Below the pieces are notes generated by a model. It worked only from the letters and a program-made list of their open reading frames with translations. It ran no database searches and was not told the DNA's origin. From an uncultured archaeon (GTDB taxonomy: Archaea; Asgardarchaeota; Thorarchaeia; Thorarchaeales; Thorarchaeaceae), in NCBI GenBank assembly GCA_964458565.1, contig CAYWJO010000026.1, positions 1-47,853 on the forward strand: a stretch of 47,853 nucleotides of DNA. The letters are read 5' to 3'. Positions 1 to 4,836 of the stretch are shown here, piece after piece; the first letter of the stretch is position 1, and each line of letters opens with the position of its first letter. Position numbers and translations under genes: made by a program.

Positions 1-374
1 GGGGTGTCACCCTCTTTGCCACGTCGTTCCAGACGACTTCGGCTTAGACACGTCGGTGATTGTCGCGGCCGTCACACCACATCTCCCTTAACTCTTCGCC
101 AAGGGATTCGGTTTGGCCTATTCCCCGTTCGCTCGCTGTTACTAAGGGAATCACAGTTGTTTTCTCTTCCTGCCCGTACTAAGATGCTTCAGTTCCGAGC
201 GTTCCCACTCCAGATTTGACCCTGGAGCCATGCAGGGTATTAGCCTACATGAGGAAGTCCCATTAGGGCACCCGCGGATCAAAGACTTCATGCGTCTACC
301 CGCGGCATATCGCTGCTTGTCACGCCCTTCATCGGCTAGCCAACCTAGTTATCCACCAGCTACCGTGTAGCGAA
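1..374 (-). rRNA. rrl: 23S rRNA, 5' part (runs off the window start)
   Basis: Reverse complement reads ...GCTGGTGGATAACTAGGTTGGC...GATGAAGGGCGTG...GAACTGAAGCATCTTAGTAC...AGTAACAGCGAGCGAAC, which are conserved LSU domain I motifs of archaeal type. The 5' end position is approximate. Confidence 0.95.
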
Positions 375-693
375 ACGCAGACCTACTCATATGACCGGCA
401 CAGTATTACCTGTTGCTTGCATATTGCAATAACTGACTTTAATGTCAGCCAAGGAGTATAATTTGTGTATCTTTATTCTTGTTCAAATTGTGAACGCCAA
501 TGTCTTATTGTATGTCATCATTCCTTTGCAGTCTAGCACATCACTTCTAAACGGTGCACGGCACCGAAGCATATGCATCGACGGTCCTCCATCGAGAATG
601 ACACCTTGCAACCTTTGTCTGGTCCCGATGGGCTAAATGGACCACAGCGACACCTCTGTGGGTGTGCGCTCCGCCAGCCTTTTGTGCCGACGA

Positions 694-1262: not shown

Positions 1263-1970
1263 CTACGGGTGTTGTAGAATCTTCCTTTGTAGGTCTATTA
1301 GCTCCGCAATACCTTTCTGAGCAAGATCGAGCATCTGATTCAGTTCATCCCGACCGAAGGATTGACCTTCAGCAGTTCCCTGAACTTCGATGAAGGATTC
1401 ATCTCTCATCACTATATTCATGTCAACATCTGCTGTTGAATCCTCTATGTAGCACAAATCCAGAATGGGAGTGGCATTTACTAATCCAATACTTACTGCT
1501 GCTACATTACCTAGGAGTGGCATTTCAGTAAGCAAATCCATATCGATCATAAATTGTAAGGCATCGACAAGTGCAACATACCCCCCTGTAATTGATGCTG
1601 TTCTTGTACCCCCATCCGCTTGAATAACATCACAGTCAAGTTTGATTGTATAGTCACCAAGGCGCGTCATGTCCACAGCCGCTCGGAGTGATCGACCTAT
1701 AAGCCGTTGTATTTCTTGAGTTCGTCCACTCTGTTTATAGCGGTTTGTGCGCTCATCTGTAGCACGAGGGAGCATGCCATATTCGGAGGTGATCCAGCCT
1801 TGGCCCTTGCCATTTAACCAACCAGGAACTCCTTCTTCAACCGTGGCAGTGCAAATTACTCGGGTTTCGCCAGTTGAGACTAGAACAGAGCCTTCAGGAT
1901 GTTTGAGAAAATTCCTGATGAATTCCACAGGTCTCAGTTCATCATTGGCTCTACCATCGGTTCTTGTCAT
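1263..1970 (-). CDS. rph: Ribonuclease PH (bacterial type)
   Basis: Motifs [64 protein letters not shown]. Confidence 0.95.
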
Positions 1971-2128: not shown

Positions 2129-3151
2129 ATGGTCGATATCCGTCAACGATTCATTACCGCATTGAAAGACACTGCGGAGGAATGGAAAACTAGAGAGAAT
2201 GTAATAGGTATGTTCGTTCATGGATCTTATGTAAAAGGAACCATCACAGCCAATTCGGACCTTGACATCTGTATCATTTGGGAAGCACAGGAAGCTCCAG
2301 CCCCCCTACTAACTGAACACAAAGGGGTACGTGTTGACATGGTATTTCTCACACCTTCAGAGATTGAAGATGTGATTGAGGAAAGAACTGAGGATGATAT
2401 GAAGATAGCAAGTGTCATAGTACGATTGAGAAATGCTGAAGTTGTACACGACACTGAGGAGATTCTCAGAAAATGGCGTGAACGCGCTATGACCTATGTA
2501 TGGCCAGAACCAGTCATCGCGAATGTCAAACAGAGAGCACTGGATGCTCTTCAAACAGCTACAGAATATAACGATGGCTTCAACACAATTGCTGCAAGTC
2601 ATGAGGTTCGTCGGGCACTCTATGAAATTGGCAGGATAATTCTGATGAGACATAACCTATTCGATATCTTGCAGCCATCAGAAATCTTGACCGAGGTAAG
2701 ATTACTTGATACGATGACATATCAGTTGTTCCTTCGAACTTTCAAGCTAAAAGGTATGAATGAAGAACGTCTTTTGGAAATTCTTTCAGACGTCGACCAT
2801 TGGTTAAAGGTAGCAGAAGAACGCTTTGGAGAAGGAGTTGCTCATGACAGTGCGGTCTTTCTTCTAAATCAGGCACAGAGAGACTATCATAGTGCACTCA
2901 GTTTAACATACAATGGTGAGTTCGAACTAGCCGCTTTGGAAATGAGACGCTCTATTGATATGATTGGAGCGTCAATATTAGCGCTGAGGGGTAGTCCCAA
3001 TATAGACCCAGTTACATTCATTCCTGAACTCCGTGATGCAGAAAGCAAGTTCTTCAATGATATGTTTTTGGAGCATGGAGCGTTCGAGTTTCAACCTAAG
3101 GGAATACAGAGAAGTATTGGAGAGGCAAGATTTATAGCTGACAGACTCTGA
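2129..3151 (+). CDS. Pol-beta-superfamily minimal nucleotidyltransferase fused to two HEPN-like helical domains
   Basis: GS-x8-DLD motif (HGSYVKGTITANSDLDI) plus a third Asp (RVDMVF). The C-terminal region has two similar helical repeats (AASHEVRRALYEIGRIIL / AALEMRRSIDMIGASIL). Confidence 0.75.
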   Translation: MVDIRQRFITALKDTAEEWKTRENVIGMFVHGSYVKGTITANSDLDICIIWEAQEAPAPLLTEHKGVRVDMVFLTPSEIEDVIEERTEDDMKIASVIVRLRNAEVVHDTEEILRKWRERAMTYVWPEPVIANVKQRALDALQTATEYNDGFNTIAASHEVRRALYEIGRIILMRHNLFDILQPSEILTEVRLLDTMTYQLFLRTFKLKGMNEERLLEILSDVDHWLKVAEERFGEGVAHDSAVFLLNQAQRDYHSALSLTYNGEFELAALEMRRSIDMIGASILALRGSPNIDPVTFIPELRDAESKFFNDMFLEHGAFEFQPKGIQRSIGEARFIADRL

Positions 3152-3220
3152 AGCTCAAAGCAATAGGACCTCTTGGGACATATTGATATGTATGATTAGC
3201 CTTCATTCTTTTGTTCAACA

Positions 3221-3934
3221 ATGCCGGATGTATCAGAAATACTATCGCTTCAATCTGTGGCTCTTACTCGCGATAAGCAAATAATGGTAGAGGAAGAGGT
3301 AAACAATTATCATGATGCCACCAACTTTGTAATTAGAGAAATATTGAAGAGAAGACTATCATCGACTGCGAGAACAATAGAATCCTTACAGGATGAAATT
3401 GCGAGAAAGTATCTTCATCTCAGAGGTTCAGTAGGACCATTGAGTCAATTGAAGGATAATCAACTAAGAGCTGAATTTGCAAGGAGATTTTCAATATCAA
3501 CGATTCAGAGTAGAGTTAGAATTGATAGAGACCCTTCTGAGACCGACGAGATGTTCAATATTAGACAACGCCGAGATTTTGGGATTATTTACGAAACACA
3601 ATATATCAGGGACGTTGTTAAAACAGCTAGAGTAGAAATAGGAAAACATAGCAGATTGGCACAAACACTTAGAAGCATTCGAGAGAGAAAACCTTACTTC
3701 AAACCAGGCAGGATTATCTATTCAAAACCAATTATTCAACTCTCGGATGATGCAAAAGCAGTTCTTCTTTTAACCGGAAAAGGTGATGAAGTACCTCTAG
3801 TGTTTGACAAACGAACAAGAAATGAATCCATTGATATACTGCAGGCCTTATTGGAGAAAAAGATGAAATACGAAAGAGTAAGGATCATATCGAATAGGGA
3901 GGGCTATCTTGACATTGTCTTTCGGATTCAATAG
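3221..3934 (+). CDS. TnpB/Cas12f N-terminal (WED/REC)-like protein lacking RuvC
   Basis: Pattern LT.DKQ...EEEVNNYHDATNFVI ... QYIRDVVKTA ... RKPYFK ... VLLLTGKG.EVPLVF ... KYERVRII...GYLDIVF matches archaeal IS200/IS605 TnpB N-halves by eye. The ORF ends where the RuvC-I GxD motif would begin. Confidence 0.6.
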   Translation: MPDVSEILSLQSVALTRDKQIMVEEEVNNYHDATNFVIREILKRRLSSTARTIESLQDEIARKYLHLRGSVGPLSQLKDNQLRAEFARRFSISTIQSRVRIDRDPSETDEMFNIRQRRDFGIIYETQYIRDVVKTARVEIGKHSRLAQTLRSIRERKPYFKPGRIIYSKPIIQLSDDAKAVLLLTGKGDEVPLVFDKRTRNESIDILQALLEKKMKYERVRIISNREGYLDIVFRIQ

Positions 3935-3945
3935 ATTTCTGATGA

Positions 3946-4836
3946 TTAATCAAGAGACCATGAAAGTAAGTTTCCGGAAAAATCCGCAGTGTAAAATTGC
4001 GTCCTCTTAGGATGCCAGCAAACTGCAGAAATTCCAGTTGGAAGTTGCACCTTAAGTTCCTCATGTCCTGAATCAAGTGACCAAATTCTTACTGTTCGGT
4101 CCCAGCTGCCAGAAAGAATCCTTTTACCTGAGGGTTCAAGCATCATCGAACTAACAATATCATTATGGATTTTGAATTCTCCGAGTTTACTACCATCTTC
4201 AAGACTGATTCTCATAATTTTCCCATCATGTAAGCCCATGAGAAAAGAGTTGTCAAGCAGTGGATGGACGGATCTGACTCTTACAGGTGGTCCTTTGATG
4301 TTCTCCACCCTTTCGTAATTACTAAGGTCCCAGATATTAGTTTCACCGGCCCATGATGTAGAAATTAATCTTGAACCATCTGTGGAGAAAAATAGACCTG
4401 AAACGTCACTATCATGAGCTTGGAGATTTCGAATACAAGTCATACTCTTTAATGAAAATACCTTCACCTCTCCATCTCGAGCGCCTGATGCACCCTTAGA
4501 ATTTTGGGGGTCTATGGCGAGGCTTTTCACCTCCGTGTTATGATTCATTATCTTCGGTTCACGTTGTTCTTTTCCTAGATACCAGAGACGAGTTGTGCAG
4601 TCCCAACTGGTAGAAACGAGTCTTCGTCCCTCACCAAGTAGCCTAACATCAGATATCAATCCTGTATGGCCCTGCAGTGTTTTTTTCGATCGACTTGTTG
4701 TCCCTGAGAATACGATCACATTTCCGTCCATTGTACCACAGGCCAATCGTCCTTTTGGATGGATAGTCATGCTAGTCAGTGTGGGAGGCTGTGCACCAAT
4801 GTGGCTGTATAGAACGCTTTTCTCCAAAGATGACAC
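3946..4836 (-). CDS. WD40-repeat beta-propeller protein
   Basis: About 7 repeats with GH/AH...S.SWD.T.R.W signatures. Confidence 0.92.
   Translation of the reverse strand: MSSLEKSVLYSHIGAQPPTLTSMTIHPKGRLACGTMDGNVIVFSGTTSRSKKTLQGHTGLISDVRLLGEGRRLVSTSWDCTTRLWYLGKEQREPKIMNHNTEVKSLAIDPQNSKGASGARDGEVKVFSLKSMTCIRNLQAHDSDVSGLFFSTDGSRLISTSWAGETNIWDLSNYERVENIKGPPVRVRSVHPLLDNSFLMGLHDGKIMRISLEDGSKLGEFKIHNDIVSSMMLEPSGKRILSGSWDRTVRIWSLDSGHEELKVQLPTGISAVCWHPKRTQFYTADFSGNLLSWSLD

Follow-up and report, generated by a model that had tools for sequence, protein, structure and literature searches.

A predicted free-standing WED+REC lobe of the TnpB/Cas12 fold, kept as a single-copy core gene beside a nucleotidyltransferase gene in Thorarchaeaceae

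In TnpB, the RNA-guided endonuclease of the OMEGA systems (short for obligate mobile element-guided activity) of IS200/IS605/IS607 insertion sequences (IS), and in Cas12f, the wedge (WED) and recognition (REC) domains contact the guide RNA, the transposon-adjacent motif (TAM) and the heteroduplex. Here, we describe a gene at positions 3221..3934 (+ strand) of a 47,853-nucleotide stretch, hereafter the window (contig CAYWJO010000026.1 of assembly GCA_964458565.1), from an uncultured Asgard archaeon of the Thorarchaeaceae. The modelled product of this gene (P0001) is the WED+REC recognition lobe of the TnpB/Cas12 fold standing by itself, with nothing left of the RuvC and zinc-finger lobes. Over its whole length, the protein superposes on the WED+REC lobe of TnpB (ISDra2, PDB 8exa/8h1j/8bf8) and of Cas12f (PDB 9i8y, 8j12, 7wju, 8dzj) with the same interrupted topology, and its basic character fits a nucleic-acid-binding lobe. 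It differs from both in lacking RuvC, the zinc-finger/TNB (target-nucleic-acid-binding) domain and the lid, in having no adjacent omegaRNA, CRISPR array, TnpA gene or IS ends, in its lack of detectable sequence-level similarity, and in being encoded by a single-copy, syntenic and vertically inherited gene.

Several host-adapted relatives of TnpB have been described. Homologues of TnpB that are nuclease-dead and work as RNA-guided transcription factors have been named TldRs (10.1101/2023.11.30.569447), and the TnpB/Cas12 census of Altae-Tran et al., published in 2023, describes many immobilised and inactivated TnpBs (PMC10691335). In cases presented in that census, exapted TnpBs keep a mutated RuvC or at most lose RuvC-III (Flagellin-TnpB), with room for a guide RNA downstream (PMC10691335). 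In published accounts, TldR, the sigma-factor-associated Cas12f homologues, Cas12k, Cas12m and the immobilised clades of the 2023 census keep at least part of the RuvC lobe. The window protein resembles TldRs and exapted TnpBs in being immobilised and kept by the host in a fixed neighbourhood, and a non-cleaving role is likewise proposed; it differs from those portrayed there in that its entire nuclease lobe is gone, that no guide locus adjoins it and that its host is an Asgard archaeon. TldRs are defined by a full-length TnpB fold, an inactivated RuvC and an adjacent guide RNA (10.1101/2023.11.30.569447; PMC10691335), and here RuvC is absent rather than inactivated. The GATase-TnpB of Sulfolobaceae is reported in the census to keep the wedge and an active RuvC without REC (PMC10691335). 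It is, in that description, also a small immobilised archaeal TnpB derivative with no room for a downstream RNA gene, lying beside a conserved enzyme gene, but the reduction is the mirror image of that seen here, the window family keeping wedge and REC without RuvC. Our full-text literature searches found no natural TnpB derivative made of WED and REC only, and they turned up no nucleotidyltransferase paired with a TnpB-like lobe, a pairing at which they were not aimed. The family looks like an undescribed way of reusing a TnpB-type nuclease.

The assignment of the fold, which we consider solid, comes from a structural model. The open reading frame (ORF), which includes its stop codon in 3221..3934, encodes 237 residues, starts with ATG, contains zero internal stops and is intact, at the coordinates that the original prediction had given. 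An AlphaFold2 model built from a 26-sequence alignment reached a pLDDT (predicted local distance difference test) of 92.9 and a pTM (predicted TM-score) of 0.89, and is laid out as one N-terminal strand, a helical lobe and six C-terminal strands. According to DSSP, the first WED strand covers residues 6-12 (3236..3256, + strand) and is followed by a conserved L-T-R-E/D-K-Q turn with conserved columns V13, T16, R17, K19 and Q20. The helical REC-like lobe (residues 17-154; 3269..3682, + strand), with model helices at 17-44, 49-66 and 109-149, sits inside the WED barrel as in TnpB/Cas12f. The C-terminal WED strands (residues 164-236; 3710..3928, + strand) lie at 164-167, 172-174, 180-184, 190-195, 217-224 and 230-236 and carry the invariant F-D-K-R-S/T-R-N loop and R219/R221. 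The protein had been predicted to stop right after the last WED strand and, in the model, the strand at 230-236 indeed ends one residue before the C-terminus, which corresponds to the point where RuvC-I starts in TnpB. Neither a RuvC lobe nor a zinc-finger lobe is present in the model. Consistently, the protein has no Pfam match to the RuvC families PF01385 and PF18516, nor to the zinc-finger/target-nucleic-acid-binding family PF07282 at E<=1, a model that does detect the resident TnpBs of the same genome.

Structure searches with this model agreed with each other. In Foldseek against the PDB, the top 40 matches were all Cas12f, TnpB, Cas12g/k/n or Cas-lambda, with E down to 1e-6, and the best TM-scores normalised by target length were obtained with the second protomer of Cas12f, whose ordered part is WED/REC only. 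VIA-align run on the Foldseek list aligned model residues 1-237 with the N-terminal WED+REC region (about 1-211 in Cas12f, 1-174 in ISDra2 TnpB) and gave Z scores of 10-13.6 over 160-172 residues for the lobes of Cas12f, TnpB and Fanzor: 13.6 for SpCas12f1 (172 residues, root mean square deviation 3.3), 12.4 for AsCas12f, about 12 for OsCas12f, 10.7 for Fanzor2 and 10.2 for residues 2-174 of ISDra2 TnpB. An exhaustive VIA-align search of 48,161 PDB representative chains, independent of Foldseek, placed only Cas12/TnpB/Fanzor-type chains at ranks 1-31, with Z falling from 12.2 to 4.7 along these ranks; the first chain of another kind appeared at Z 4.7 over 104 residues. Finally, an ESM Atlas shape search returned TnpBs and short N-half ‘transposase (fragment)’ clusters (TM 0.58-0.64), and a language-model feature search led to the same kind of cluster. 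The structural match to WED/REC that the original prediction had proposed to look for with Foldseek was therefore found, on the N-terminal lobes of Cas12f, TnpB and Fanzor.

At the sequence level, the picture is different. Single and profile searches of Pfam, NCBIfam, PADLOC and PDB sequences gave no meaningful match, the Pfam set being one without PF27234 (MJ0013), which ESM Atlas names as the archaeal TnpB N-lobe family. Comparison by hhalign of the WED/REC family with 25 Thorarchaeota TnpBs, relatives of the resident copies, was not significant (E 0.46). Local and global alignments with whole TnpBs and with their N-halves (E 0.17-0.78) were no better than a reversed-sequence control. The only stretch that hhalign aligned, without significance, was the final hairpin, which falls immediately ahead of the place where the resident TnpBs have their GIDLG RuvC-I motif. 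The archaeal TnpB N-half pattern recognised in the original prediction is in part borne out: Y30..A33.N35-F-V-I, K156-P158-F160-K161 and the terminal beta strands are present and belong to the most conserved columns. Their likeness to TnpB gains no statistical support, hhalign scoring as the reversed control does.

The relatives of the window protein form a compact family. A word-indexed search of 5.8 billion proteins retrieved 25 of them, with lengths of 150-250 residues and 33-65% identity; most of the named ones come from Thorarchaeota metagenome-assembled genomes (MAGs), and one each is labelled ‘Hodarchaeota’ and ‘bacterium’. When 1.84 billion cluster representatives were searched exhaustively with HMMER, with no length filter, only 18 matches came back, all short except a 786-residue coiled-coil chance match and one protein of 377 residues, and no longer RuvC-bearing relative was found among them. 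Invariant or near-invariant columns are L-T-R-E/D-K-Q after the first strand, Y30..A33-T-N35, D131-V-V-K-T-A-R-V-E, K156-x-P-x-F-K161, F-D-K-R-S/T-R-N (195-201), R219-x-R221 and G228, and the invariant or near-invariant basic residues are R17, K19, K134, R137, R154, K156, K161, K197, R200, R219, R221 and R235. The family is basic throughout (isoelectric point, pI, 9.4-11; net charge about +10). Orthologues fall into two length classes, of 180-189 residues (also given as 180-190) and of 226-240 residues. In alignments, residues 64-85 and 90-124 of the window protein (57 residues; 3410..3592, + strand) are missing from the 180-190-residue orthologues, so that the REC insertion of about 55 residues in the original prediction corresponds to lineage-specific extra REC helices. 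In one distant member of 377 residues (P0036, L044:5001-6134), the WED/REC lobe is fused to a 190-residue tail in which a helical repeat (R-P-W-E-V/I-L...) recurs about four times; this tail has no RuvC-family Pfam match, and the WD40 gene found at other loci is absent from this one.

The gene is a vertically inherited, single-copy core gene, held at a fixed locus under purifying selection. In a family-profile survey of 85 species-representative genomes of the window's family and about 315 genomes of other Asgard families, it was found in 79/85 family genomes, with one copy each, as in the window's genome, and in 0 of the roughly 315 others. Five of the six remaining genomes (G341, G367, G379, G394 and G395; 65-88% complete) have neither this gene nor the nucleotidyltransferase gene that precedes it elsewhere, and the sixth (G361, 87% complete) shows only a partial nucleotidyltransferase match; this suggests that the locus is unassembled rather than lost. 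More than 30 loci share one gene order, with RNase PH (-), nucleotidyltransferase (+), WED/REC (+), WD40 (-) and M28 peptidase (-) genes, and the wider neighbourhood (RNase PH, M28 peptidase, PNP, GNAT) is also syntenic. The ratio of non-synonymous to synonymous substitution rates (dN/dS; Nei-Gojobori, 14 orthologue pairs with unsaturated dS of 0.2-1.3) is 0.07-0.19 for the WED/REC gene, with a median of 0.13, and 0.05 for the nucleotidyltransferase gene. No relative has a full-length TnpB at this position. The traits of an IS200/IS605-type mobile element (multiple copies, TnpA, IS ends, variable location) are not seen in this single-copy gene with fixed synteny and neighbours of the housekeeping type; it shows instead the same-locus orthologues across a clade and the purifying selection that mark a domesticated host gene. 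Same-length syntenic orthologues with dN/dS<1 had been named in the original prediction as a check, and a missing WED/REC match, a full-length TnpB at the locus in relatives or absence of the gene from them as grounds against it; the orthologues were found and none of these grounds was. Altogether, the gene is old and domesticated, not a recent truncation, and structure, synteny and dN/dS support the core of the earlier proposal, that of a domesticated, nuclease-free WED/REC derivative of TnpB/Cas12f.

Its invariant pairing with the upstream nucleotidyltransferase gene is the strongest clue that the context offers. In all the loci examined, the WED/REC gene directly follows the co-directional nucleotidyltransferase gene, which in the window occupies 2129..3151 (+ strand; Pfam NTP_transf_2/Polbeta) and encodes a 340-residue KNTase/ANT(4')-like protein with a long helical tail. 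The four homologues furthest from the query (E 1e-8 to 1e-17) likewise lie directly after a 340-residue nucleotidyltransferase gene, and three of these four loci are without the WD40 gene and one without RNase PH. Since the pair is kept where WD40 or RNase PH is lost, the nucleotidyltransferase and WED/REC genes are the invariant unit of the locus. The single sister-family genome sampled (96% complete) encodes a full-length nucleotidyltransferase orthologue (E 5e-84), followed by a 102-residue membrane ORF, and has no profile match to the WED/REC gene even at E 10. The WED/REC lobe was thus either added downstream of a pre-existing nucleotidyltransferase gene or lost in the sister lineage.

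The AlphaFold2 model of the nucleotidyltransferase (pLDDT 88.9) was matched by Foldseek to ANT(4')/kanamycin nucleotidyltransferase (E ~1e-5), the Hailong HalB oligonucleotide synthase, LinB and MNT antitoxins, and the motif in the window's genome reads G-S...S-D-L-D. The protein shares with KNTase/ANT(4')-type nucleotidyltransferases and MNT antitoxins the Pol-beta-type nucleotidyltransferase domain, the G-S...D-x-D motif and a helical tail, but it has 340 residues, its helical tail is longer and in two parts, and some orthologues have Asn in place of a catalytic Asp. With these substitutions, the enzyme may be catalytically impaired in some lineages. The nucleotidyltransferase is acidic (pI about 5), in contrast with the uniformly basic WED/REC family. 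Co-folding of the two proteins (26-row alignments each) gave a score of 0.01 for a mark of 0.32, a result that we count neither for nor against binding.

We also looked at the DNA around the gene for a regulatory element or a guide RNA. Most orthologues have the element TAGATTGATTAG(G), ending 30-34 nt before the WED/REC start codon and then, some 10 nt ahead of that codon, a conserved GTG; spacer comparison with orthologues reveals a degenerate copy (ATATTGATATGTATGATTAG) in the window at 3180..3199 (+ strand). The spacer between the divergent RNase PH and nucleotidyltransferase genes has a conserved TTTATTGA(C/T) box of its own, 55-65 nt upstream of where the latter gene starts (2057-2069 in the window, and at orthologous loci). 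Related to TAGATTGATTAG, it is probably a TATA-like promoter element of the lineage, and the upstream TAGATTGATTAG element with its GTG is probably the WED/REC gene's own TATA-like promoter plus initiator. The exact 12-mer of the upstream element occurs 74 times in 86 family genomes, compared with 5 for the reversed control. Roughly half of the 74 copies are at the WED/REC locus; elsewhere, they fall mostly within ORFs and stand ahead of unrelated genes. In the window's genome, the 9-mer shows no enrichment. The element contains TTGAT, which we take to be the ISDra2 TAM. We considered it as a relic TAM or as the operator of a regulon; this is unlikely given the off-locus copies in ORFs, the unenriched 9-mer and the TTTATTGA(C) at the nucleotidyltransferase promoter. 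A conserved hairpin after the element was also considered and rejected, the minimum-free-energy z-scores averaging 0.15.

No guide RNA (omegaRNA or CRISPR RNA) is encoded at or next to the gene, whose flanks are 69 bp upstream (from the end of the nucleotidyltransferase gene at 3151 to 3221) and 11 bp downstream, with no structure signal in the upstream spacer and no Rfam RNA family nearby. The convergent WD40 gene (3946..4836, - strand) ends 11 bp away, as predicted, the two stop codons being separated by positions 3935-3945, and the downstream side indeed leaves no room for an omegaRNA. At one orthologous locus (L018:1220-1494), a 272-nt spacer contains about 40 nt (GCGGGAACGCCACATGCAGCACATGGTCATGCAGGGACGAC) twice, about 85 nt apart; the interval between the repeats resembles the 3' end of the nucleotidyltransferase ORF and may be a local duplication.

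On this basis, we lean towards the view that the WED/REC protein is a non-catalytic nucleic-acid-binding factor derived from a TnpB-type protein and coupled to the pathway of the nucleotidyltransferase, an account that as a whole we hold to be somewhat probable. A TnpB-type gene would have lost its nuclease half in the ancestor of the family, downstream of a pre-existing nucleotidyltransferase gene. Its product would be a non-catalytic, strongly basic protein binding nucleic acids through the groove in which TnpB accommodates its guide scaffold and the TAM-proximal duplex, and would supply substrate recognition, of RNA or DNA, in a pathway shared by the nucleotidyltransferase and RNase PH. With moderate confidence, we would place this pathway in nucleic-acid 3'-end metabolism rather than in guide-RNA-programmed targeting. 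The latter is less likely and more interesting. In one version, the lobe would be a programmable or sequence-reading module delivering the nucleotidyltransferase to specific nucleic-acid targets, either with the help of a guide RNA from another locus or by TAM-like recognition of DNA or RNA. We consider this version improbable; if true, the two proteins would be a nuclease-free, two-protein descendant of an RNA-guided system, writing nucleotides instead of cutting.

Several points weigh against the account of a binding factor coupled to the nucleotidyltransferase. Sequence homology to TnpB is undetectable, hhalign being level with the reversed control, and descent from TnpB therefore rests on the fold, the topology and the lack of any other look-alike in the PDB. 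That the lobe is derived rather than ancestral is suggested by its narrow distribution, and nucleic-acid binding by charge and fold. Moreover, in the ISDra2 structures the RuvC lobe of TnpB also holds the omegaRNA, so a lone WED/REC lobe need not bind RNA in the same way. As for the coupling, pairwise distances of the WED/REC protein and of the nucleotidyltransferase do correlate (r 0.81; Mantel, 0 of 2000), but this is weak evidence of a functional link, adjacent genes being co-inherited anyway. The gene's own conserved promoter-like element means that co-transcription with the nucleotidyltransferase is not required. Finally, the second catalytic Asp of the nucleotidyltransferase is Asn in 5/26 orthologues and the third in 2/26, which weakens the case for a strictly enzymatic coupling.

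The adjacency could also be no more than inherited gene order, the protein being a nucleic-acid binder or adaptor whose work has nothing to do with the nucleotidyltransferase, such as a chromatin protein or an RNA chaperone. Its promoter-like element, with its fixed spacing, would fit such a protein, as would the general conservation of gene order over the whole region (RNase PH, M28 peptidase, PNP, GNAT) and the sister family's nucleotidyltransferase without a WED/REC gene; yet the pair stays intact where WD40 or RNase PH has gone and no locus separates the two genes, and we regard this independence as rather unlikely. Less likely again is an RNA-guided or TAM-type DNA-binding regulator, using a guide encoded elsewhere or reading a short motif alone, that would repress or mark its targets as TldR does but without a dead RuvC. 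The fold match speaks for it, since in TnpB/Cas12f WED/REC read the TAM and hold the guide and heteroduplex, and so do the basic character of the protein and the TTGAT-containing element conserved 30-34 nt upstream in most orthologues, which could be an autoregulatory site. However, the 69 bp upstream and 11 bp downstream leave no room for an adjacent guide RNA, there is no Rfam RNA and the upstream spacer carries no structure signal (mean z 0.15). Nor is a regulon seen, off-locus 12-mers being mostly in ORFs and before unrelated genes, and the related TTTATTGA(C) at the nucleotidyltransferase promoter makes the element look like a lineage-typical TATA-like box.

A role directed at the resident TnpBs was also weighed. 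The lobe would be either a dominant-negative decoy that takes up omegaRNA or occupies TAM sites, in line with the dominant-negative inhibitor among the functions suggested in the original prediction, or a partner protomer comparable to the partly ordered subunit in the Cas12f dimer. The window's genome has about six TnpB genes, and the best target-normalised TM-scores are those of a second Cas12f protomer with only WED/REC ordered. Nonetheless, family genomes have anywhere from 0 to 43 TnpB zinc-finger domains each, while the WED/REC gene stays single-copy. TnpB is not seen in 21/86 family genomes, some of them 91-95% complete and one a one-contig assembly, a count to be read with the caveat that IS copies are often unassembled in MAGs. 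Those seven well-assembled genomes without detectable TnpB (G319, G322, G323, G327, G328, G355 and G357) all keep the single-copy WED/REC gene, which, with the same caveat, suggestively argues against an anti-TnpB role. With the lack of detectable sequence similarity to the resident TnpB N-halves, this makes such a role very unlikely. Among the resident TnpB genes themselves, some lie at contig ends (C68, C79) and others are without the first WED/REC part (C7, C39). We give equally little credence to a decaying, recently truncated fragment of an IS200/IS605-type element or to a fold that came to resemble that of TnpB by a separate route. Databases contain many short ‘transposase (fragment)’ clusters that cover the N-half only, and no sequence homology backs descent from TnpB, but a fragment is already largely refuted by an intact ORF in 79 genomes at one locus, with dN/dS of about 0.13 and invariant residues. 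Convergence would have to reproduce an interrupted topology (strand, helical lobe, strands) that aligns end to end with Z 12.2, compared with 4.7 for any other fold among the 48,161 chains.

Around the gene, the genes flanking it in the window are, by Pfam, RNase PH, nucleotidyltransferase, WD40 and M28 peptidase. The Pfam scan of these neighbours found no transposase and no RuvC remnant beside the WED/REC gene, in line with the original prediction. The RNase PH gene (1263..1970, - strand; Pfam RNase_PH and RNase_PH_C), divergent from the nucleotidyltransferase gene, is a conserved neighbour at most loci, and the WD40 beta-propeller gene (Pfam WD40) is a common but not invariant one. At three orthologous loci (L011:5537-5553, L013:2886-2900 and L045:5560-5585), the 3' ends of the WED/REC and convergent WD40 genes overlap by 15-26 nt, in contrast with the 11-bp gap in the window. 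Furthermore, an archaeal large-subunit rRNA gene has its 5' end in the first positions of the window (1-380, - strand; Rfam RF02540, 264.7 bits) and is truncated by the window edge.

The family shows that a host can retain a recognition lobe alone among its core genes over long periods. The known exapted relatives may retain RuvC partly because the censuses rest on profiles of the nuclease half, and profile searches built in this way would probably miss this reuse of the TnpB scaffold. As a natural minimal WED+REC protein of 180-240 residues, it offers a tool to ask what this lobe binds without RuvC and whether a guide is needed. It also raises the question of why, in Asgard archaea, such a lobe stays with a KNTase-like nucleotidyltransferase.

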